In this document: piece by piece, positions 6,560 to 22,389 of the stretch | Position numbering within the stretch: the stretch's first letter is position 1 | Layout of the letters: every line of letters starts with the position of its first letter | Source: Myxococcota bacterium | GTDB taxonomy: Bacteria; Myxococcota_A; Bradymonadia; UBA7976; UBA1532 | Assembly: GCA_036337435.1 (NCBI GenBank) | Contig: JAYZEG010000030.1 | Location: forward strand, 38,424-102,423 | Length of the DNA stretch: 64,000 nt | Direction: 5' to 3' | The notes under the pieces: model-generated | The model's input: the letters and a program-made list of their open reading frames with translations, nothing else | What the model was told of the DNA's origin: nothing | Databases searched by the model: none | Translations under genes and position numbers: made by a program

Positions 6560-7009
6560 TTAACTGATGACCGTGCCGAGATCGAGGATCTCAGCCTGCT
6601 GCGCAGTATGCGGATGCTCAGAGCCAACGTAGACTTTCAACTTCTTGAGTTGGGCTCGGCCGAGAGGCCCTCGCGCAAGCATCCCCTTGACGGCCTTGCG
6701 GATGATCTCTTCAGGATTTCGCTCCAGCATTTCCTTAGCGGTCGTCGACTTTAACCCTCCGACGAAACCGGTGTGGCGATAATATTTTTTATCAGCCCAT
6801 TTTTGACCGGTGAATACGACCTGTTCCGCGTTGATCGCGATGATGAAATCACCGTCATCGATATGGGGCGTATAGGTTGCTTTATGCTTGCCTCGCAGAA
6901 CGTGGGCAATGCGCGTTGCAGCACGGCCGACAGTTTGTCCAGCCAAGTCAACGACATACCACTTTCGGTCCGCTACGGCTTCAGCCGTGGTTGTGGATCG
7001 CGTATACAT
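6560..7009 (-). CDS. rplM: 50S ribosomal protein L13
   Basis: WYVVD, LRGKHK..YTPH.D.GD, HPHTAQ; upstream of rpsI as usual. Confidence 0.99.
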
Positions 7010-9113: not shown

Positions 9114-10514
9114 ATGAGCAGCCAGACATCAGCTTATTCCGGTAACGGACGGCAAGCTTTTGATGAGAGCATCTGGGCGGACGTGCGCGTGACCGCTTCG
9201 AAGACCGCTAAAAAAGTCCAATTCATCGGGGGTTTTAAGCACTCCGACGCCATCTTCAGGTGGTGCGATCAAGAGGCTGGACTCAAGGTCTTGGGCTTTG
9301 GATGTTTCGCGATTTCAACATCGGCAGATGCGTTCCAGCAGCCCTTGGAGTTTGTCATCGGTGGCGTGCATGTAGATGCCGACGATTTGTTTACATACAT
9401 CAAAACAAAACTAGACGAGTCTCTATGGGCGATGCCCATCGGGTTCTTTGCACTGCGTTTTGATTCAGAGCGAGACAGTCAATCGAGCCTGTGGTGTGAG
9501 TGGCCGGCTGCAATCGTTCAAATTCCCGAACAGATCATTGTCGAAAAAGAGGGCCGAGAGACAGTCGATATCAGATTTGAATTAGTCAGCCAGTCACATC
9601 CACTTGCCAATGGAAACAACAAATCCGTGACAACACGCAGCGAGCGACAGTTCGAATGCACTCGCTGGAGTTCGAACCAAAAGTGGGACGAAGCCGAGGA
9701 CAGCACTCATTTTCAGGACAGGGTGTTCGCCGTTGAGGCGGCCTGTCGCAATGAACTCGTTGATAAAATTGTTTTGGCTCGTAGTGCCAGTGTGCGCTGC
9801 GAACCACAGCAGAGCTTTTGTCCTCAGAAAACGTACGACGCCCTCGTTGATAAACATCCGAAAACGACCGTCTTTTCCATCCGACGAGGCAGTCAGCATT
9901 TCATGGGAGCAACGCCCGAGACGCTCGTGAGGGTCACGGGGTATGAAGTTACGACCCATGCGTTGGCTGGCACCGCGACCCATGATCCAGAGGCCATGCT
10001 GGTCGATGACAAAATACGAAGAGAACACGCCTACGTTGTCGGCGAGATTCAGTCGGGGCTCGAACCCCTGTGTGATGCATTGCAGATCGAACCGGCACCG
10101 AGCATTCGACCGGCCAATCATTTGTTTCATCTTCAAACCAAGTTGGTCGGCGTCCCCAAGGCTGGGTATTCGATTTTCGACTTTGTTCGCGCGCTCCATC
10201 CGACGCCCGCGCTCTGCGGGTTGCCGAGACAAGATTCAATGTCGTGGTTACGGAAAACCGAACCTCTGGACCGTGGTTTTTTTGGCGGGCCCGTGGGTCT
10301 TTTCGATGCATCGGGCCAAAATGGGACCTGCGCTGTTGCAATTCGCTCGGGGTTGCTCGGCCTAAACCAAGCCGTTGGGTTCGCAGGCGCAGGCATCGTG
10401 AGCGGCTCGAATCCAGTGGAAGAGTGGACAGAAACGGAAGCGAAATTAGACGCGTTCAGGTCGGCTCTTCGCACGATGAAGCGGCCGGATTCAGAGGACG
10501 CGGTGCGACAATGA
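9114..10514 (+). CDS. menF: Isochorismate synthase
   Basis: KIVLAR, GATPE, ALAGT, LHPTPA, AGAGIV, ETEAK; heads the men cluster. Confidence 0.9.
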   Translation: MSSQTSAYSGNGRQAFDESIWADVRVTASKTAKKVQFIGGFKHSDAIFRWCDQEAGLKVLGFGCFAISTSADAFQQPLEFVIGGVHVDADDLFTYIKTKLDESLWAMPIGFFALRFDSERDSQSSLWCEWPAAIVQIPEQIIVEKEGRETVDIRFELVSQSHPLANGNNKSVTTRSERQFECTRWSSNQKWDEAEDSTHFQDRVFAVEAACRNELVDKIVLARSASVRCEPQQSFCPQKTYDALVDKHPKTTVFSIRRGSQHFMGATPETLVRVTGYEVTTHALAGTATHDPEAMLVDDKIRREHAYVVGEIQSGLEPLCDALQIEPAPSIRPANHLFHLQTKLVGVPKAGYSIFDFVRALHPTPALCGLPRQDSMSWLRKTEPLDRGFFGGPVGLFDASGQNGTCAVAIRSGLLGLNQAVGFAGAGIVSGSNPVEEWTETEAKLDAFRSALRTMKRPDSEDAVRQ

Positions 10515-12259
10515 ATACGGCAGCCCTGCGTCCGATGAACCAAGCCTGGGCCAACGCATGGATCAGTGCAGCAATCATCGCTGAAATCGTCGAACAAGGC
10601 GTTAAACTCGCCGTTTTATCGCCAGGGTCACGCAACACACCCTTGGCCCTGGCACTGGCTGATTGCCCACAGGTTGAAGTTAAAGTGGTTCTCGATGAGA
10701 GGAGTGCCGGATTTTTTGCGCTGGGCGTCGCAAGAGCCAGCCAGCGACCCGTTGTCCTCGCCTGTACGTCGGGGAGCGCATTAGCCAATTATTATCCAGC
10801 GGTTGTCGAGGCTTTTCACAGTGAAATACCGCTTGTCTTGCTGACGGCCGATCGACCGAGTGAATTACAAGGTCGCGGTGCGCCGCAGACGATGAAACAG
10901 CCTGGTTTTTTTGGTTCATTCGCCAAAGTTTGTATGGCGATTGATGCGCCCGAGCCAGAGGCTCCGGTCAACCTGGATAGGTTAAGTGATCTTGGGTTTG
11001 CGATTCGCACGGCCAGAACAGCGCCGCAAGGACCCGTCCATGTGAATTGTGGTTTCCGGAAGCCATTGTGGGATCCGCAGACCGAACGGCAGGTCATCAA
11101 GGTTCCAAAAAGGGACTATGAGCAAATCATTCGGGATACGACCGAGCAGATGACGGATGCTTTTGTTGACCTCGTGGCGCGTTCAACCAAGGGCGTATTT
11201 GTTTGCGGTCCAGACGCTTTTAAGTCGTCGGGTGACGCGTCCAAATTATACGAGTTGGCGGACGGATTAGGGTGGCCGGTTCTTGCTGAAGCGTCGTCCG
11301 GAGCACGATATGGCCACTCACATTCGTCATTGTTCACACACTATGACGCGGCATTCAGAACGCCTCATGCGATACCCGAACCCGACTGCATTGTCAGATT
11401 TGGTCGGGCTTGTACATCGCAGTGGCTCGCCAATTGGATCAGGGACTGTGAACATGCGGCTTGGATTGTCATTCATGATGGGCAAACATGCGTTGATCCA
11501 GAGCGACACCACGACCATTACTTCGAGGTGTCGCCGGCCATATTGGTGGACAAAGTTGTGGCGAGACGTTTTCGTACGGCAGCAGACCCCGATTGGTTAA
11601 GCCAATGGACCCAACTTGAGACAACGTGTCAATCGGCTTTGGACCGAGACGATTTAGACTTATTCTGGGAAGGCTCTGTCGCCTCGATCTGCGTAGAACA
11701 CCAACCAAATGGGTCTGCGATTCATGTTGCCAATAGTATGCCGATTCGTGACCTGGACGCCTTTGGCGGTCGCACTGAGTCTGAGCTGACAATATTTGTG
11801 AATCGAGGCCTGAACGGAATCGATGGCACCATTGCCACCGCAGTGGGTGAACAAGTTGGGCTGGCTGATGCGCGCCTGCTTCTACTCGTCGGAGATTTAG
11901 CGTTCCGACACGATGCCAATAGTCTTGCCTTGTGCCGTGATACCAAGCTCACGATCGTGGTCAATGATAATGGCGGCGGCCAAATTTTTCGATTTCTTCC
12001 AATCAGCGAACATAAACGGGTGTTCGAAGAGCTTTTCCTGACCCCGTCGAAAATCGAAGTGGAGGCTCTTTGTCGCGGCTACGGTCTGCGCTGCACGATC
12101 GTCGAGACAAACGATGAACTCAAAACTGCATTGGCGAACGAACAAGATAAAAGCGACTCGGGCGTCATCATCGCGCGCATTGACCCCGAATTAAATTACA
12201 AGCAGCACCACGCGATGTGGCAGCGCGTCCGAGACCAATTGGCCGAGTCAAGCCCATGA
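10511..12259 (+). CDS. menD: SEPHCHC synthase (ThDP-dependent)
   Basis: SPGSRNTPL, DERSAGFFALG, CTSGSA, NSMPIRD, NRGLNGIDG, GDLAF...NDNGGG; ATG 10511 overlaps the menF TGA. Confidence 0.96.
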   Translation: MNTAALRPMNQAWANAWISAAIIAEIVEQGVKLAVLSPGSRNTPLALALADCPQVEVKVVLDERSAGFFALGVARASQRPVVLACTSGSALANYYPAVVEAFHSEIPLVLLTADRPSELQGRGAPQTMKQPGFFGSFAKVCMAIDAPEPEAPVNLDRLSDLGFAIRTARTAPQGPVHVNCGFRKPLWDPQTERQVIKVPKRDYEQIIRDTTEQMTDAFVDLVARSTKGVFVCGPDAFKSSGDASKLYELADGLGWPVLAEASSGARYGHSHSSLFTHYDAAFRTPHAIPEPDCIVRFGRACTSQWLANWIRDCEHAAWIVIHDGQTCVDPERHHDHYFEVSPAILVDKVVARRFRTAADPDWLSQWTQLETTCQSALDRDDLDLFWEGSVASICVEHQPNGSAIHVANSMPIRDLDAFGGRTESELTIFVNRGLNGIDGTIATAVGEQVGLADARLLLLVGDLAFRHDANSLALCRDTKLTIVVNDNGGGQIFRFLPISEHKRVFEELFLTPSKIEVEALCRGYGLRCTIVETNDELKTALANEQDKSDSGVIIARIDPELNYKQHHAMWQRVRDQLAESSP

Positions 12260-13155
12260 CTGCAAATCAAGGACATACCCTGACCAAGGCCCAGATCTGG
12301 GTGTCAGCGATTAGACCCGCAACATTATGGGCCGGTGCCGTGCCTGTTTTCGTTGGGGCAGCCTTAGCCGCGGCGGCTGGATACGGGCCTGGTACGAGTT
12401 CGATTTTGGCATTGGTCGGTGCGCTCTTAATCCAGGTCGGCACAAACCTGGTCAACGACTATGCGGATTTTAAAACCGGTGCAGATGGTCCAGACCGACT
12501 CGGTCCCAAGAGGGCAACCTCTGAAGGTTGGCTCAAACCAAGACAGGTTCTCGCTGCCGCACTCATCACACTGCTATGCGCTGGGGCCGTTGGTGTCTAT
12601 CTCAGTACAATCGGCGGGGCTCCAATCCTTGTTCTTGGGATCGTCAGCATCGTCTGTGCTGTCGCGTATACGGCAGGCCCTGTGCCACTGGCGTATGTGG
12701 GTTTGGGCGATGTCTTCGTGCTCGCTTTCTTTGGAGTCGCTGCCGTCGCGGGAACGTTTTACTTGGAGACAGGCTTTCTGGATGTTGGGTCGGTCATCGC
12801 AGGTCTCATCATCGGGGCTTTAGCCACGATGATTCTCGTCGTCAACAACCTTCGAGATCGTGTTGGCGACAAACGGGTCGGAAAGCGAACTCTGGCGGTC
12901 CGGTTTGGCCCTCGGTTTACTCGGATTCAGTATCTGGCTCTTTGTATCGCCGCGTACGCGCTGACCGTATATGGCGTTTATACAGAGCTGTTCAGCCAAT
13001 GGACGTATTTGGTCGGTATGACCATCCCATTGGCTGTCTCAGAGTGCCGTGCTGTGTTGAAAAAAGATGGGCAGGACTTGAACCCCCATCTGGGTGGTGC
13101 TGCCAAATTAGAATTGGCGTTCGGTTTGTTGTTCTGCGTTGGAGTCGTCATATGA
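12256..13155 (+). CDS. menA: 1,4-dihydroxy-2-naphthoate polyprenyltransferase
   Basis: NDYADF..GAD, NNLRD...D...GKRTLAVR, multiple TM helices; ATGA overlap. Confidence 0.96.
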   Translation: MTANQGHTLTKAQIWVSAIRPATLWAGAVPVFVGAALAAAAGYGPGTSSILALVGALLIQVGTNLVNDYADFKTGADGPDRLGPKRATSEGWLKPRQVLAAALITLLCAGAVGVYLSTIGGAPILVLGIVSIVCAVAYTAGPVPLAYVGLGDVFVLAFFGVAAVAGTFYLETGFLDVGSVIAGLIIGALATMILVVNNLRDRVGDKRVGKRTLAVRFGPRFTRIQYLALCIAAYALTVYGVYTELFSQWTYLVGMTIPLAVSECRAVLKKDGQDLNPHLGGAAKLELAFGLLFCVGVVI

Positions 13156-14162
13156 CGTTATCTGTCGACAGCATTCGCTTCAAACCATACGACGTCGACT
13201 TGGACCGGGCAGTTCGGAAGACTGTTTTTGGCGATAAGCCTCGCCGGTGTTGGCACGTTTGCACTCGGACCATCGAAGGACAGACCGGTTGGGGTGATAT
13301 TGCTCCTTGGCCTGGATTTAGCGAGTCTGCAACCGAAATAGACCGTCGCATCCATCAACTTGAAACGTCTATCTCTCCGGTTCAATTCGAACAGATTGCG
13401 GACATGGAAATCTGGCTGGACGGGCTGGACTTGGAGCCTGTCATTCGCTTCGGACTCGAACTGTCATTTTTGGATCTGTTTGCTCAACAACGAGGCGTTC
13501 CGATTGCAGCACTTCTCGATCCAAACTATGCCACCGAACTGTCGATTCATGCGTTGGTGGACAGTGCTGAGACAGCCGTCAGCTCTGTTGAAGCGGGAGC
13601 GGACGCCATTAAAGTTAAACTCAGTGACACTTGGCGCAAAGACGTCGAACGCATTCGAGACATCCGACAGGCGGTTCCGCTGGCGAAAATTCGGATCGAT
13701 GCCAACGGGGCGTGGCCGGAGCGGCTCGCGAAAAAACGAGTCAGAGAGCTCAGCGAACTGGGTGTAGACATCATCGAACAACCTGTGTCAGGAGAAGATA
13801 TTGACGGTTTAAAAGCGGTTGCATCAACCTGCGAGATGACCCTCTCGGCTGATGAATCGGTTTGCGTCGATGCTGAGGCTGTCCTTGCCATTGACGCGCT
13901 CAATGAAATCGTTTTGAAACCCATGTATTTGGGTGGACTCGTGCCCTCGTACGAACTGGCCCAGAAAGCCTATCGGCGTGGGTTGAAGGTCTGCGTCACT
14001 CACGCTCTGGAATCCAAAATCGGTCGAACTGGCGCAGCTCACCTAGCCGCCGCATCCGACGCGCTCAAGCCGGCAACCCATGGCATCTCCGGAGCCTGGA
14101 ATCGGTCAGCAATGGAGATCATGGTGCCAAGAACCCCAGGCCTTGGAGTCTCCGTCCAATGA
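13152..14162 (+). CDS. menC: o-succinylbenzoate synthase (enolase superfamily)
   Basis: KVK, DANG, EQP, DES and LKP motifs; ATGA overlap with menA. Confidence 0.88.
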   Translation: MTLSVDSIRFKPYDVDLDRAVRKTVFGDKPRRCWHVCTRTIEGQTGWGDIAPWPGFSESATEIDRRIHQLETSISPVQFEQIADMEIWLDGLDLEPVIRFGLELSFLDLFAQQRGVPIAALLDPNYATELSIHALVDSAETAVSSVEAGADAIKVKLSDTWRKDVERIRDIRQAVPLAKIRIDANGAWPERLAKKRVRELSELGVDIIEQPVSGEDIDGLKAVASTCEMTLSADESVCVDAEAVLAIDALNEIVLKPMYLGGLVPSYELAQKAYRRGLKVCVTHALESKIGRTGAAHLAAASDALKPATHGISGAWNRSAMEIMVPRTPGLGVSVQ

Positions 14163-15949
14163 CCACTTGGCTACCACACCCCCTCTACCAAGCCGCCCAA
14201 GCGCATCCAAATCGCATTGCGATTCGCGAAGGGATAGCCGCACTCACATATGGACAACTCCTGTCCCGAGTGGCCGCGCGCGGCGATGTCCTGCGAGCGA
14301 GTGGTGTTGACGGCGGGGCCGTGGTTGGTTTGAGAGGCCAACAAAACCTGGATTGGTTGATTAACTTTCACGCCATAGGATGGTGCAATGCCGCGGTTTT
14401 TCCGATAGGCGAGGACCTGCATTTGACCGATGGGGAGTTACGCGAACTCAATGTCACTCAGGTGATCGAGAGTCGGAAACAGGCAACAACCGACAATGTT
14501 GAGGGGACATCTGAGCCAGTCTTCGCGCCGCGGTGGCATCTAGATGAACTCAGGCTGCTGATCGCAACGACTGGAAGCACAGGGCGTCCAAAAGTTATAC
14601 CGCTCACGACTGGACAGCTCTTTTTCAGTGCGATGGGATCAGCCATTCGCCTTGGGCATCAACTCGACGATAACTGGCTGATGTGTCTACCGGCCCACCA
14701 TATCGGTGGAGCGTCGATTCTGCTGAGAGCAGCCTGGTACGGGATCAGCGCGGAGATTTGTCTCCCATTCGAAGTACACCGGGTCGCCGAGCGTCTCCGC
14801 TCGGGCGAGGTAACAATGGTGTCATTGGTGCCCACCATGCTGAGTCGCTTGGTACGACTTCATGACGGGACAAGCCTCCCGTCCAGACTTCGTTGCGTGC
14901 TCGTCGGCGGGGCCCATTGTTCGACCTCATTGCAGGACGCAGCGCTCAAAGCCGGTCTCCCTGTGCTTTTGACTTGGGGTATGACTGAATGCGCCTCGCA
15001 GGCAGCAACACAGTCACCCGGCCAAAATCCAGTCACTCACGATTGTGGGTCTCCGATGCCATTCACAGTTGTCTCGACCGAAGATAAGCGACTTAGGATT
15101 GACGGACCGACCTGTCCCGGCGGCCTACTAACCCGCGACCTTGGAGACATCGAGAACGGCCGAGTTCGTGTGGATGGCAGATGCGATACAGTTTTGATTA
15201 GTGGAGGAAAAAAAATCCAACCACAATCAGTTGAGTGCATCTTCCAACAGCACGAAAGCATCAATTCCTGTGTGATTATCGGACTGAACGATGAGCAGTG
15301 GGGCCAAACCGTCTGCCTGTGCGTAGAACTCAACGCAGACTACGATTTCTCGACCGAGCTGGAACACCTGGTGCGACTGGGACGCTCGAAACTGAAAAAG
15401 CATGAGATTCCGAAAGTGTGGGTTCAGGTACCCAAAATGCCGACCAATTCGGTTGGCAAAGTGGATCGAACTCAGCTTCGAGCCAACTTAGGGCTTGACC
15501 ATGCCGATCCCGACGAGCTGGTCGATGAACTGAGGTGGACATTCAGTCGGCTTGAAAGCTGGGAAGGCAACGAAAGCGTGTTTCTGGCGGACGACACAAC
15601 GCACTTTTCCGTCAAGAAGTCCGGAAATGGAACACTTGAATGTAATGGATCTTTGAGTCAGGCGCTCAATCTCCATGGTGGCAACCAAACGCTCGCCTCT
15701 GCGCATGGGTTGGTTAAACGCCGAATCGGCAAAGACGAGGGGCAAACCAACTCCAGCGGAGTCGAAAACATGGTCGAAGTCGCCAAAGGCAGCAGTGAGC
15801 ATTTCTTCGAAACACACGTGGGCATACTCGAAGGCGCGACCATAGAAAACGATCCCGGCGCGGTCGACCTCGTGGAATCGGGGCGTGAATTCGTGTTTGA
15901 AGGACATAAGCAAATACCCAACGGTCATGAGGCTGATCAGAATGACTAA
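14159..15949 (+). CDS. menE: o-succinylbenzoate-CoA ligase with a ~153-aa C-terminal extension
   Basis: TTGSTGRPK, WGMTE, TRDLG, ISGG, GKVDR. Recognisable MenE ends near 15490 but the frame has no stop until 15947-15949. Confidence 0.9.
   Translation: MTTWLPHPLYQAAQAHPNRIAIREGIAALTYGQLLSRVAARGDVLRASGVDGGAVVGLRGQQNLDWLINFHAIGWCNAAVFPIGEDLHLTDGELRELNVTQVIESRKQATTDNVEGTSEPVFAPRWHLDELRLLIATTGSTGRPKVIPLTTGQLFFSAMGSAIRLGHQLDDNWLMCLPAHHIGGASILLRAAWYGISAEICLPFEVHRVAERLRSGEVTMVSLVPTMLSRLVRLHDGTSLPSRLRCVLVGGAHCSTSLQDAALKAGLPVLLTWGMTECASQAATQSPGQNPVTHDCGSPMPFTVVSTEDKRLRIDGPTCPGGLLTRDLGDIENGRVRVDGRCDTVLISGGKKIQPQSVECIFQQHESINSCVIIGLNDEQWGQTVCLCVELNADYDFSTELEHLVRLGRSKLKKHEIPKVWVQVPKMPTNSVGKVDRTQLRANLGLDHADPDELVDELRWTFSRLESWEGNESVFLADDTTHFSVKKSGNGTLECNGSLSQALNLHGGNQTLASAHGLVKRRIGKDEGQTNSSGVENMVEVAKGSSEHFFETHVGILEGATIENDPGAVDLVESGREFVFEGHKQIPNGHEADQND
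15488..15907 (-). CDS. Hot-dog fold acyl-CoA thioesterase (4HBT class), probable DHNA-CoA hydrolase
   Basis: MSFKHEFTPRFHEVDRAGIVFY...CFEEML...LPLVFADSAFNQPMRRGE, 139 aa; nested antisense within menE. Confidence 0.88.
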   Translation of the reverse strand: MSFKHEFTPRFHEVDRAGIVFYGRAFEYAHVCFEEMLTAAFGDFDHVFDSAGVGLPLVFADSAFNQPMRRGERLVATMEIERLTQRSITFKCSISGLLDGKVRCVVRQKHAFVAFPAFKPTECPPQFIDQLVGIGMVKP

Positions 15950-17033
15950 GCAAAGTACATTTCGGGTGAAGTTGGCTGAACAACCAGCCAAAACAGATCC
16001 GGTGCTTACGACACTGGCATCAACAACACAACGAAATCAAGCCGATGAGGTGTCCAAGCGACTCATCGAACTGAGGGATTGGCTGGCCGATGACCTCTAC
16101 GAACTTGAGAAAGATATGGGGACCGTGGTGGCAGACCCCGGCAAAGATCTTGCTTGGAAGGCGGTGCAGTATCTACTGCACAAGGCAGGAAAGCGAGTTC
16201 GCCCTATCTGCACCCTGTTGGCAGCACGGATGGGTGATAGACCGTTCGATGAGGATGTCAAACAGGTGGCCATCGCCGCCGAGTTAGTACACTCTGCAAC
16301 GCTCCTGCATGACGATGTTATTGACCAAGGCGAAGAGCGTCGCGGCCATCCGACGGCCCGGATGGTTTATGGCAATTCAGCGAGCGTCTTGGGTGGTGAC
16401 CATTTACTGGTAGACGCATTGAGACGTGTAAATACAGCCGACTCAAGGTTGGTCTCGTCGCTGCTCGATGTGATCTCGCAGATGGTCCATGCAGAAGCAC
16501 TTCAATTGGATATGAGAAACTGTTTCAAGCCGGATCGGGAGTTGTATCAAGAAGTCGTTCATGGCAAGACTGCGGCTCTGTTCCAATGGGCTTTGGAAGC
16601 CGGTGCTCTTTTGGGTCATTTAAACGAGCAACAAATCAGCTTGTTGAGCGACGTTGGAGTCAATCTTGGGATGACATTTCAGTTGGTAGACGACAAGCTC
16701 GACTTGTGCGGAGATCCAACAGAGACCGGCAAAGATACCTGTCTCGATTTGAGAGAAGGAAAGTTGACCTGGCCAATGATTCTCGCAGCGGAACGATCGC
16801 CACAATTACTGCTTCAATTGAGGCAATATGCCAGCGCGACGACAGACCCTTCGCGAGCGGATGCAAAACGTCTCGTGGAGGCGATTGCCGCGACCGGTGC
16901 CATCGAGGCGACCCATGCGCGTGCCGCAGCCTTTGCCGACAAAGCACTAGACTCACTGAGGAAACTGCCTGACGGTCCATCTCGCTCTGCGCTAAAGGCT
17001 GTGATTCATACAGCCCTTGAACGGTCGAGGTAA
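15942..17033 (+). CDS. Trans-polyprenyl diphosphate synthase (IspB/HepT type)
   Basis: GKRVRP, LLHDDVID...RRG, GKTA, FQLVDD; probable ATG 15942 overlaps the menE TAA (ATGACTAA). Confidence 0.93.
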   Translation: MTKQSTFRVKLAEQPAKTDPVLTTLASTTQRNQADEVSKRLIELRDWLADDLYELEKDMGTVVADPGKDLAWKAVQYLLHKAGKRVRPICTLLAARMGDRPFDEDVKQVAIAAELVHSATLLHDDVIDQGEERRGHPTARMVYGNSASVLGGDHLLVDALRRVNTADSRLVSSLLDVISQMVHAEALQLDMRNCFKPDRELYQEVVHGKTAALFQWALEAGALLGHLNEQQISLLSDVGVNLGMTFQLVDDKLDLCGDPTETGKDTCLDLREGKLTWPMILAAERSPQLLLQLRQYASATTDPSRADAKRLVEAIAATGAIEATHARAAAFADKALDSLRKLPDGPSRSALKAVIHTALERSR

Positions 17034-17038
17034 AGCCC

Positions 17039-18025
17039 ATGCTGATCAACTTAAAACCGACAGCCGATACGAATTCGGTAAAGCAAACGCTGACGGGCTT
17101 TGGTCTTTGGCTCGAGACACTTCTCGACCAAGACGGTGCCGCCACTGGCTTCATCGTGAAGGGCTATTCAACCCCTGTCGACCCACAAAAAATCGCATCT
17201 TTGGATGGGGTCAGCGGGGTCTTCAAAACCGAAAGTAGTCACCCAAAGGTCGATGCGAGGTGCCACCAGGTGATCGACTTGGGTGAGCTTCAATTTAGAA
17301 CGACGACACCGACACTGATCGCAGGGCCATGCAGCGTAGACTCAGAAGAACGAATTGAAAGCATCGCAAGCCAGGTTGCACAAGCAGGCGGAAAAGTGTT
17401 GAGGGGTGGGGCTTACAAACCACGAACATCTCCTTATTCCTTTGCTGGATTTGGCAAACCCGCGTTGCAATGGATGAGGCGCGCCGCCGATCGACACGGA
17501 CTGCGTATCGTGACCGAAGTCATGTCGGAACACGATGTGAATACCGTTGCCGACATGACTGATATTGTTCAGGTTGGATCGCGCAACATGCAAAACTTTG
17601 CGCTGTTGAGACAGGTAGGCGAAGCGAGAAAATGCGTCCTCTTGAAACGGGGTCGTTCGGCAACGGTCTCAGAATGGTTGATGGCTGCCGAGTACCTGTA
17701 TGCCAGTGGTGCCGACAGTGTCCTTTTTTGTGAACGGGGCATTCGTGGATTCGATGGCGAAACGAGAAACCTCATCGACTTAGGTGCTGTCGCTCTCCTG
17801 AGCCATCACTATGGGCTTCCAGTTATCGTCGATCCATCTCATGCGGCAGGGCGACGGGATCTGATTGTTCCATTGTCGAAGGCGTCGATCGCGGCTGGTG
17901 CTGTTGGCGTCATGGTCGAGGTTCATCCAGCACCCAGCACCGCCCTATCCGATGGGCCTCAAGCGTTGAGCTACGAAACCTTGAGACAACTCTCAAAATC
18001 TCTGGAACTGGAGTGCATTCAATGA
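17039..18025 (+). CDS. aroF: DAHP synthase type I-beta with N-terminal regulatory domain
   Basis: IAGPCSV, GGAYKPRTSPY, GSRNMQNF, CERGIR, DPSH, SDGPQ. Confidence 0.95.
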   Translation: MLINLKPTADTNSVKQTLTGFGLWLETLLDQDGAATGFIVKGYSTPVDPQKIASLDGVSGVFKTESSHPKVDARCHQVIDLGELQFRTTTPTLIAGPCSVDSEERIESIASQVAQAGGKVLRGGAYKPRTSPYSFAGFGKPALQWMRRAADRHGLRIVTEVMSEHDVNTVADMTDIVQVGSRNMQNFALLRQVGEARKCVLLKRGRSATVSEWLMAAEYLYASGADSVLFCERGIRGFDGETRNLIDLGAVALLSHHYGLPVIVDPSHAAGRRDLIVPLSKASIAAGAVGVMVEVHPAPSTALSDGPQALSYETLRQLSKSLELECIQ

Positions 18026-18726
18026 CAACACAAATGGCGCGAGCTGATGGAAGCGGAGCGATGTTTGATCAGATCGCGAAGCGGTATGACTTGCTCAATC
18101 GGCTGATGAGTTTCGGGATGGACCGTGGCTGGAGAAAGCAGCTGATTGAATCGATGCCAAACGATGGCGAGTTGCTCGATGTCGCCACAGGAACCGCCGA
18201 TGTTGGCCTCGCGCTGGCGAGGGTGCATCCACAAACTCAGGTGATCGGACTCGACCCAAGCCAAGGTATGCTCGACGTCGGGCATTCCAAGATCAAAGCA
18301 CGTAAGTTGGATGATAGAGTGACATTGGTGCTCGGCGATGCCCAAAGTATGGACTTTGAGTCGAATCGATTCAACGGGTGCACCATCGCCTTTGGAATTC
18401 GCAACGTACCCGACCGTTTAAAGGGGCTACAGGAGATGGCTCGGGTCGTCAAACCCGGTGGCGTCGTCTCCATCCTTGAGCTCTCTGAGCCGAAAGGTGG
18501 CCTAATGGCGTTCTTAGCGCGCCTTCATGTACATCATATCGTTCCGATAATGGGCTGGATTCTGTCGGGCAAGAAAGAATACCGCTACTTACAAAAATCG
18601 ATTGCGGCGTTTCCGCCTGCAGATGAGTTTGCGAAGATGATGACCGCGTCAGGCCTGACCGATGTAAAAGTGATTCGGCTGACCTTTGGGGTGGCACATT
18701 TATACATCGGTCGAGTGGCGGGCTGA
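18022..18726 (+). CDS. ubiE: Demethylmenaquinone methyltransferase UbiE/MenG
   Basis: FDQIAKRYDLLN..MSFG, LDVATGTAD, FGIRNV, YRYLQKSI; ATGA overlap with aroF. Confidence 0.95.
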   Translation: MTTQMARADGSGAMFDQIAKRYDLLNRLMSFGMDRGWRKQLIESMPNDGELLDVATGTADVGLALARVHPQTQVIGLDPSQGMLDVGHSKIKARKLDDRVTLVLGDAQSMDFESNRFNGCTIAFGIRNVPDRLKGLQEMARVVKPGGVVSILELSEPKGGLMAFLARLHVHHIVPIMGWILSGKKEYRYLQKSIAAFPPADEFAKMMTASGLTDVKVIRLTFGVAHLYIGRVAG

Positions 18727-20943: not shown

Positions 20944-22389
20944 TTAACCTCCGATAAGTGACAGTGCAATGTTCGGTTGCTGGTTGGCCTGCGACAAGAC
21001 GGAAACGCCTGCCTGCTGGACAATCTTCAACTTCGAGAACTCTGCTGACTCTTTAGCAAAATCCGCATCTTGGATTCTGCTTCGAGATGCCGTCAGGTTC
21101 TCCGTGCTCACCTCAAGGTTACGCACAGTCGAAGCCAACCTATTTTGTACCGCACCCAATGAAGCGCGACTTGCAGAGACTTGACCAATTGCTTTGTCAA
21201 GAATGGAGAGGGCCCGGTTGGCACCTTCTCTATCCGTGACATCCAGCGTCTGCACCGTATTGGCATCGTTCACACCGAAGAGAGTCGCTCCTGCACCACC
21301 GACGTCACCAAGCTTTGTTATAGCGGCGCCGCCGAGGTCGAATTGTTGCTCAGACTCCAATGTGAGCCGACCACCAGTCACTGTGGTTCCAGCCCCAGCA
21401 GTAATGCCCAATCGAGTGGCATTACCCAAGACCGTGATTTCGACATTTCTGCCGTCATCAGCAGTCAGGACAAGACGGTGATTGTCATCCAGAGACGCAA
21501 CAACGCCCGTTTCGTCAGTGATCGAGTTAATCTGGTTGACCAGTTTGTCATTGGCATCATTGTCTTCAACCCGAAACCCGGTGAGCGTTACACCGTTAAT
21601 GGTCACGTTATTGGTCGAATCCAAGGTTACCGCCTGGATATCACCAGTTGACTCAACAATCGTCGAATCGACCAAGGCTGTAACACCGGTAAATTCGCTA
21701 GAATCATTGATTGCTGCTGCTTTAGCAATCGCCGACGAGTCGTTCAATGTTGTCGAAAGCGAATCATCTGCGGCAACAGTAGACCGGATCGTGACACCAC
21801 GAATGGTGACGTCTCCATCACTGAGATTCTGTCCAGCAGCCACCGCAATGTCAGCCGAACTAGAATATCGAGCCTGTCGCCCAAGACTATTTGCTCTCGC
21901 ATCCTTTACACTGATGGTTAGATTTTCATGGGCGTTCGCTCCGATGTGGAACTTCGCACCCGTGAATGAACCATCAAGGATGTTCTGGTTGTTAAATGTC
22001 GTCCTCTCTGCGATTCGGTTCAGTTCGGAGATCAACGCATCAACCTCTTCCTGAATCGAACCTCTGTCAGCTTCTGTATTTGTATCATTCGCCGATTGAA
22101 CGGACAGCTCTCTCATCCGCTGCAAGATCGAAGTTGTCTCTTGCAAAGCCCCTTCAGCGGTCTGAGCCAACGACATACCGTCATTGGTATTGCGAATCGC
22201 TTGAGTAAGACCACGTACTTGCGTAGTCATTCTCTCACTAATCGCCAGACCAGCTGCATCGTCCTTGGCACTGTTAATACGCATGCCGCTAGACAGGCGT
22301 TGAAACGATGTACCAAGAGACCGAGTGGACCGGTTTAAGTTACGCATAGCGTTCTGTGACGAAGAATTCGAATTAACGAAAAGACCCAT
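20944..22389 (-). CDS. fliC: Flagellin
   Basis: RLSSGMRINSAKDDAAGLAI, LQRMRELSVQSAN, GAVQNRL, SRIQDADFA, LSQANQ. Confidence 0.97.
   Translation of the reverse strand: MGLFVNSNSSSQNAMRNLNRSTRSLGTSFQRLSSGMRINSAKDDAAGLAISERMTTQVRGLTQAIRNTNDGMSLAQTAEGALQETTSILQRMRELSVQSANDTNTEADRGSIQEEVDALISELNRIAERTTFNNQNILDGSFTGAKFHIGANAHENLTISVKDARANSLGRQARYSSSADIAVAAGQNLSDGDVTIRGVTIRSTVAADDSLSTTLNDSSAIAKAAAINDSSEFTGVTALVDSTIVESTGDIQAVTLDSTNNVTINGVTLTGFRVEDNDANDKLVNQINSITDETGVVASLDDNHRLVLTADDGRNVEITVLGNATRLGITAGAGTTVTGGRLTLESEQQFDLGGAAITKLGDVGGAGATLFGVNDANTVQTLDVTDREGANRALSILDKAIGQVSASRASLGAVQNRLASTVRNLEVSTENLTASRSRIQDADFAKESAEFSKLKIVQQAGVSVLSQANQQPNIALSLIGG

Follow-up and report, generated by a model that had tools for sequence, protein, structure and literature searches.

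The 64,000-nucleotide (nt) stretch of DNA analyzed here, referred to below as the window, comes from a Myxococcota bacterium (assembly GCA_036337435.1, contig JAYZEG010000030.1) and carries a cluster of menaquinone (men) genes in which a complete thioesterase gene lies on the minus strand, opposite the 3′ part of the menE open reading frame (ORF) (Table 1). The menE ORF (14159–15949) encodes 596 amino acids (aa) and stops at TAA 15947–15949. Its recognizable portion is shorter: PF00501 (E 6e-38) and PF13193 (E 2e-7) match it, and the family matches finish at aa 434–444, in agreement with the initial annotation of this sequence, which had placed the end of MenE near 15490. The thioesterase ORF, counted from its ATG, meets menE at TTA 15488–15490, a triplet read as Leu444 in menE and, on the opposite strand, as the thioesterase stop codon TAA; because it serves both genes, the two frames lie exactly codon against codon (register 0). 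From this point the menE frame continues without a stop over the whole thioesterase gene, through an extension that we call the bridge ORF, and ends at the start of a polyprenyl diphosphate synthase gene. The overlap thus has the anatomy first described for it, that of an antisense thioesterase nested in an open menE extension.

The junction at the end of the bridge is compact. The synthase ATG begins at 15942, a TGA in another frame occupies 15943–15945 and the menE TAA follows, such that stop and start overlap by 8 nt at ATGACTAA. Upstream of this junction, a 34-nt spacer separates the thioesterase ATG on the minus strand from the synthase ATG on the plus strand and would itself be translated in the menE frame; it contains GAGG at 15929–15932, 9 nt before the synthase start, and GGAGG-like motifs occur at the same site in relatives (GAGG or GGAGG, 7–10 nt upstream, judged by eye). 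Elsewhere in the cluster, the ATGA overlaps previously listed at 10511, 12256, 13152, 14159 and 18022 are all present when read from the sequence. By gene order alone, the layout is that of a noncontiguous operon, in which an opposite-strand gene sits between co-directional, functionally related genes.

Table 1. Features of the menE–thioesterase–synthase locus and its flanks, in window coordinates
Feature	Coordinates	Strand	Basis
MenE core (o-succinylbenzoate-CoA ligase), aa 1–443	14159..15487	+	PF00501, PF13193; starts in ATGA with menC
153-codon menE-frame extension and stop (bridge ORF)	15488..15949	+	ORF; matches no family
Hot-dog thioesterase, 139 aa and stop, likely 1,4-dihydroxy-2-naphthoyl-CoA (DHNA-CoA) thioesterase (Slr0204 type)	15488..15907	-	PF13279, 4k00, fold
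Shared codon TTA/TAA	15488..15490	both	Sequence; register 0 in all 13 loci
34-nt spacer with GAGG	15908..15941		Sequence
ATGACTAA stop–start junction	15942..15949	+	Sequence
Long-chain polyprenyl diphosphate synthase	15942..17033	+	PF00348, E 1.5e-57
Upstream cluster genes: MenF/MenD/MenA-like (named in the initial annotation), MenC	9114..14162	+	ORFs; ATGA 10511, 12256, 13152
Downstream aroF-like and ubiE/menG-like genes (named in the initial annotation)	17039..18726	+	ORFs; ATGA 18022

The embedded gene has the properties of a thioesterase gene under constraint. PF13279 (4HBT_2, E 7e-7) and PF03061 both score above their cut-offs, over the whole length of the 139-aa product. A profile built from 10 orthologues and compared with the PDB finds 4k00 as its best match (E 2e-18, residues 11–133 aligned); this structure is Slr0204, the DHNA-CoA hydrolase of Synechocystis. 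An uncharacterized thioesterase, 3ck1, is nearly as close (E 6.6e-17), and weaker matches are the Pseudomonas 4HBT structure 1bvq (2.4e-5), the Staphylococcus aureus DHNA-CoA thioesterase 6fdg (4.3e-5) and YbgC, 1s5u (1.7e-4). An AlphaFold2 model of the protein (predicted local distance difference test score, pLDDT, 88.9) used as a Foldseek query again returns 4k00 on top, at a template modelling (TM) score of 0.81–0.82, with identity of only about 20%; the query has 399 PDB matches at E ≤0.001, of which every one listed is a hot-dog thioesterase. In the 10-sequence alignment 24 columns are invariant, among them D15 (10/10), whose aligned counterpart in 4k00 is the Asp in DTDGAG. We take the Asp of this N-terminal motif to be the catalytic residue in Slr0204 and 4HBT alike.

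The resemblance to the cyanobacterial DHNA-CoA type that had been noticed from a sequence motif thus holds by both profile and fold. Like Slr0204, the embedded protein has a hot-dog fold and the aligned Asp, and its gene is men-linked; it differs in its low identity to Slr0204, in that the window genome holds two further 4HBT_2 genes, and in that its activity is a prediction. MenB is encoded elsewhere in the genome. The embedded gene, which has its place within the men cluster in 13 loci, probably encodes the DHNA-CoA thioesterase of the menaquinone pathway. It is also the frame under constraint: between the window and its close relative G002, differences amount to 0.12, 0.04 and 0.33 at thioesterase codon positions 1, 2 and 3, and identity is 86% for the thioesterase and 65% for the extension. 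Relatives of the thioesterase already known as proteins include P0003 (78% identity), P0006 (63%) and P0007 (57%).

The extension, by comparison, reads as a tail with no sequence-level function that is predicted to be unstructured. The last 152 residues of the menE ORF match no Pfam or NCBIfam family, a protein atlas search with the extension gave no usable match, and AlphaFold2 models it with a mean pLDDT of 38 and no secondary structure. An alignment of 13 extension sequences has no invariant column, with identity to the window falling to 17–31%, and its mean column identity is 41%, versus 60% for the 10-sequence thioesterase alignment. Where the extension is best conserved it mirrors the thioesterase N-terminus, and its substitutions, both between the window and G002 and among population variants, follow the pattern of a passive mirror of the thioesterase. 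Purifying selection on amino acids is therefore seen in the thioesterase frame and not in the extension frame, in which the absence of stops is the only property conserved.

A stop lost near 15490, or a chimeric join there, might have been introduced in assembly or binning, and the window is drawn from a draft genome of 95 contigs and 87% completeness. We nonetheless regard an artefact as very improbable. As a check, we aligned Logan contigs from other public runs to the window; a fourth run, X3, contributed no contig, which has no bearing on the question, while contigs of three runs, X1 (15190–15651), X4 (15457–15839) and X15 (15365–15535), cross 15470–15500, the interval singled out for checking in the initial annotation, with no stop and no indel. 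These contigs of three other runs speak against an assembly error over that interval, and 12 other loci from separate assemblies share the architecture. The same runs supply variants within the overlap: all four single-nucleotide polymorphisms (SNPs) found there are synonymous in the thioesterase, and three of the four alter the extension. One low-depth contig of run X1, perhaps through strain variation or an error, carries a tandem 4-nt GATC insertion after 15934. With this insertion the menE frame terminates not at TAA 15947 but at the TGA of ATGA (15943), still on the synthase start. Since the shifted frame ends at this TGA, ATGACTAA offers stops in two frames.

We sought relatives of the thioesterase in genomes, in GTDB species genomes (66 loci) and in metagenomes (2 loci, of which L085 has the same sequence as L019). 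The relatives are marine Myxococcota metagenome-assembled genomes ('Myxococcales', 'Bradymonadia', 'Nannocystaceae'). A menE-like gene stands beside the thioesterase in 21 of the 66 genome loci and is convergent with it in 20 of the 21. Among these 20, a full open overlap of 447–510 nt in register 0 is found in 11 (L019–L027, L029 and L031), a tail overlap of 4–31 nt in 5 (L032, L040, L043, L044 and L071) and no overlap in 4. Together with the window and one metagenomic locus, L086, the 11 make up 13 complete loci; a further one, L028, is cut by a contig end. The menE frame is open across the thioesterase in register 0 in all 13, at thioesterase identities down to 37%, and its first stop is never more than 8 nt from the synthase start, whereas the first stop in the third frame scatters from −67 to +842 nt. 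The junctions themselves are of several kinds: five are ATGA, three are ATGACTAA, one is TAATG and four have TGA, 1–5 nt and then ATG. The comparison with relatives, which the initial annotation had proposed as a check, accordingly bears out the open extension and the fixed stop in 13/13 loci, but carries less weight as evidence of selection than this count suggests, with 9 of the 13 at 69–78% GC and open by default.

The family to which the window belongs comprises 28 species genomes, with the thioesterase in 11 and MenE in 18. Eight loci of this family have no thioesterase (L104, L105, L109, L111 and L113–L116), and in these menE has a tail of 4–24 aa and is joined directly to the synthase, through ATGA in seven and through TGA, 4 nt and ATG in one. 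With 13 embedded and 8 direct cases, translation is thus continuous from the MenE core to the synthase start in 21/21 loci. A menE stop close to the synthase start, preceded within the menE ORF by a Shine-Dalgarno motif, is likewise present in 13/13 embedded and 8/8 thioesterase-less loci. As for the DHNA-CoA step in the thioesterase-less loci, we observed only weak hot-dog matches elsewhere in the genome, in G014 and G018.

In a tree of MenE, embedded and thioesterase-less states are interspersed, and the low-GC genus, which is embedded, branches first. In approximately unbiased (AU) tests, uniting all embedded loci in one clade had p 0.03 and uniting all thioesterase-less loci in one clade p 0.15; one gain of the thioesterase in the family is thus weakly disfavored, and one loss is compatible with the test. 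The phylogeny favors, but does not settle, an embedded ancestor from which the thioesterase was lost in frame once or more often, and the thioesterase is probably not a recent "insert". Outside the family, the convergent pairs L032 (Neomarinimicrobiota), L040 (Polyangiaceae), L043, L044 and L071 resemble the window locus in being arranged tail to tail with overlapping 3′ ends; they differ in that their menE stops after 4–31 nt and unrelated genes come next. No men gene follows the thioesterase in these outgroups, the neighbor being a PEMT-like methyltransferase in L032 and an M3 peptidase in L043. Because the convergence of menC-menE on the thioesterase recurs in other phyla, a men function of this thioesterase family is supported.

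How surprising is the open frame? In register 0, an open antisense frame requires only that the thioesterase be free of TTA, CTA and TCA codons. The comparison of codon usage suggested in the initial annotation gives a contrast, these three making up 2.79% of codons in the genome and none in the window thioesterase. Of 7294 windows of 139 codons taken from long ORFs of this genome, 223 (3.1%) also lack them, and given the Leu and Ser count of the thioesterase itself, the probability of openness is 0.069. A single genome therefore proves little, and the weight rests on relatives. In the 69–78% GC loci stop-making codons are nearly absent, and for this reason these loci show inheritance and not selection. 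The informative lineages are those of low GC: the window (54%), G002 (54%), G001 (57%), L086 (57%) and G003 (58%, 81 codons only). In their five thioesterase genes, with GC at third codon positions (GC3) of 0.55–0.69, none of the 46 Leu and 29 Ser codons is stop-making, with chance values of 0.069, 0.024, 0.107, 0.176 and 0.341 per lineage. Between these species, fourfold-degenerate (4-fold) site identity is 0.26–0.38 for the thioesterase and 0.23–0.42 for the synthase, which is saturated except in the window–G002 pair, and because of this saturation their codon choices are near independent. With the window excluded, our own rough estimate of the combined chance of low-GC openness is p ~0.002–0.02. 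For comparison, two 4HBT_2 paralogues in the same genome carry seven stop-making codons each, and the non-overlapped orthologues L032, L043 and L044, at GC3 of 0.60–0.62, carry three, three and four. Spacer lengths in multiples of three were discarded as a sign of selection, being true by construction for an in-frame stop.

On these grounds we lean, with somewhat more belief than doubt, toward a noncontiguous men operon in which what keeps the bridge ORF open is its use in translational coupling and in averting polarity, not its product. That selection acts on the frame being translated, so that ribosomes cross to the synthase start, and thereby dictates the Leu and Ser codons of the thioesterase, is a more specific claim on which we stand evenly divided. 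The analysis shows the anatomy and how it is conserved, the family and fold of the thioesterase, its avoidance of the three codons and a tail that lacks both fold and conservation; we infer that the genes are transcribed together, that the tail is translated, why its frame would be selected and that antisense transcription is regulatory. In outline, a selected Slr0204-type thioesterase gene on the minus strand would interrupt a chain of men genes linked by ATGA overlaps. Ribosomes moving past the MenE core would translate 153 mirror codons and terminate on the synthase start codon, with the tail emerging as an unstructured peptide without function; what would be kept is that the frame stays open and where it stops. 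Delivery of ribosomes to the next start could proceed by coupled termination and reinitiation, with the GAGG motif lying inside the bridge. A menE that stopped right after its core would leave about 460 nt of the operon transcript untranslated; coupling would be lost and the RNA exposed to Rho, a protein that is encoded in the genome (715 bits). The cost would fall on the thioesterase, from which TTA, CTA and TCA would be barred. The promoter for its mRNA would have to lie within the synthase coding region or just ahead of it, and because of this position the thioesterase mRNA would be fully complementary to the operon mRNA; the complementary transcripts might then interfere with one another, as in the menE noncontiguous operon of S. 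aureus. Evidence for coupling comes from the ATGA chain and from the GATC variant contig, which still ends on the synthase start. The idea of coupling across the antisense gene, raised in the initial annotation, thus fits both the ATGA chain and the direct junctions of thioesterase-less relatives.

A serious rival, though in our judgment the less likely account, holds that the bridge is a neutral shadow ORF. By this account, the menE of a high-GC ancestor had no stop ahead of the antisense gene, whether through loss or from the outset; the in-register frame, open by default, would run on to the old menE stop with its openness unselected, the low-GC genus would have kept it by luck and the codon bias of the thioesterase, and the tail would be junk or trimmed. 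Several observations favor this account or weigh against selection for openness. The chance of openness derived from flanking genes is 0.27–1.0 in the nine loci at 69–78% GC, and in this genome the fraction of open windows rises from 3.1% to 19% once windows are matched in composition (GC3 0.60–0.66, Leu+Ser ≤16, n=116); the thioesterase itself has a GC3 of 0.63, somewhat above the 0.54–0.57 of its flanks. The window, having been picked for being open, is no test of openness, and the low-GC replicates that remain are few (G002, which is close kin, G001, L086 and G003). In the outgroup phyla, menC-menE converges on the thioesterase with an ordinary menE stop and a tail overlap of just 4–31 nt. 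Coupling may moreover be unneeded, since the synthase has a Shine-Dalgarno-like motif of its own. Run X15, which crosses the junction between the MenE core and the thioesterase stop, is an RNA library, but an unstranded one in which DNA origin is possible, and a scan of 15200–16400 for sigma-70 promoters and intrinsic terminators returned none of either, and hence no thioesterase promoter. Neither conservation nor a fold of its own is seen in the extension peptide, and long antisense shadow ORFs are known in GC-rich genomes, as the available text of two reports describes (PMC3454372, PMC8850804). What the neutral account explains poorly is the lack of any stop-making codon at 75 Leu and Ser positions in five low-GC genes whose synonymous sites are saturated, when same-genome paralogues and non-overlapped orthologues of the same GC3 do contain such codons. 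It also sits uneasily with a stop placed at the synthase start in 13/13 loci while the third frame scatters, and with the direct menE–synthase junction of 8/8 thioesterase-less relatives.

Dual coding, the term used in the initial annotation, would in the strict sense give the 153-residue tail a function within MenE, such as that of a disordered arm binding the thioesterase, the synthase or the membrane, with selection at the protein level on both strands. Beyond the frame being open in 13/13 loci, what speaks for this is the 4-fold site identity of the thioesterase between the window and G002, 39/58 (0.67) versus 1170/2421 (0.48) for 16 neighboring ORFs pooled (Fisher p 0.005). However, two of those 16 neighbors reach 0.70 and 0.82 without any overlap, and against G001 there is no excess (16/42 versus 618/1794, p 0.63). 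The absence of an invariant column, the identities to the window as low as 17–31%, the mirroring of the thioesterase N-terminus by the best-conserved stretch of the tail and the mean pLDDT of 38 all argue against two functional proteins, as do the three of four population SNPs that alter the tail and the relatives that manage without thioesterase or tail. We therefore consider this reading improbable. The two high-identity neighbors, both on the minus strand (20944–22389 at 0.82 and 6560–7009 at 0.70, the other neighbors lying at 0.35–0.54), are probably strongly codon-biased genes.

The nearest known counterpart to a noncontiguous men operon with a bridge is found in S. aureus, where the operon menEC-01914/MW1733-ytkD-01912 has an opposite-strand gene between co-directional genes (Iturbe et al. 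2024, PMC11034616). According to the available text of that report, single long reads span the antisense gene (with Saenz-Lahoya et al. 2019 cited there), and the architecture tunes the menaquinone level through RNase III and transcriptional interference. Both operons contain menE and a single opposite-strand gene inside. They differ in that the available text for S. aureus reports no operon ORF open across the antisense gene and gives that gene as one of unknown function, whereas here it is a candidate pathway enzyme; in addition, the phyla are unrelated, the neighboring genes are others and the present case is known from sequence alone.

The bridge also resembles the two long antisense overlapping ORFs described in Pseudomonas aeruginosa (PMC8850804), in that an older, conserved gene of a GC-rich lineage has a long ORF on its opposite strand, and the question is whether selection maintains it. 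In the available text of that work, the Pseudomonas ORFs are novel frames that stand alone within a larger gene; the bridge instead continues a neighboring enzyme at its C-terminus and covers the older gene completely, from its stop to its start, and the proposed benefit lies in the act of translation and not in its product. Our search of the open-access literature turned up no account of an operon ORF that runs on across an entire antisense gene. We rate the arrangement as a combination of known kinds, namely a noncontiguous operon, an antisense overlapping ORF and translational coupling.

If the bridge is kept open by selection, the operon would tolerate an antisense gene by reading straight through it; coupling would be kept and Rho not invited, and the antisense gene would pay with a restricted choice of codons. 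Changes that are synonymous in the thioesterase can place stops in the bridge. The locus further serves as a warning for annotation, as a nested opposite-strand gene can be lost from pathway reconstructions. The protein database records the 596-aa MenE of the window and that of a G002-like sequence, and the window thioesterase is absent from it, apparently having been dropped by the gene caller; because the caller kept MenE and no thioesterase, the probable DHNA-CoA thioesterase step would look missing. Thioesterases from short contigs and from G001 are recorded, the latter under the NCBI name acyl-CoA thioesterase.

The assignments of MenC, MenE and the synthase rest on profile scores and context. 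The MenC call is based on PF13378 and TIGR01927. For MenE, TIGR01923 (menE) is the best NCBIfam model, at 234.6 bits against a cut-off of 330, and every NCBIfam menE equivalog cut-off is missed; the upstream menC with its ATGA junction supports the identity. The best NCBIfam models for the synthase are heptaprenyl and octaprenyl diphosphate synthases, all scoring below their cut-offs. MenE diverges faster than its neighbors, with 75% identity to G002 versus 92% for the synthase.

A scan of 15300–16300 on both strands against Rfam, at E up to 1, gave no match. Within the 5′ coding region of the synthase, a block at 15996–16039 is near-identical in the window, G002, G001 and L086, synonymous positions included, while synonymous sites elsewhere are saturated between these species; G003 differs. 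The block has no sigma-70 or Rfam match, and family-wide conservation of the encoded peptide is only moderate. On the minus strand the block precedes the thioesterase ATG by about 90–135 nt, and it may be a thioesterase promoter, an element of the 5′ untranslated region or an mRNA element.

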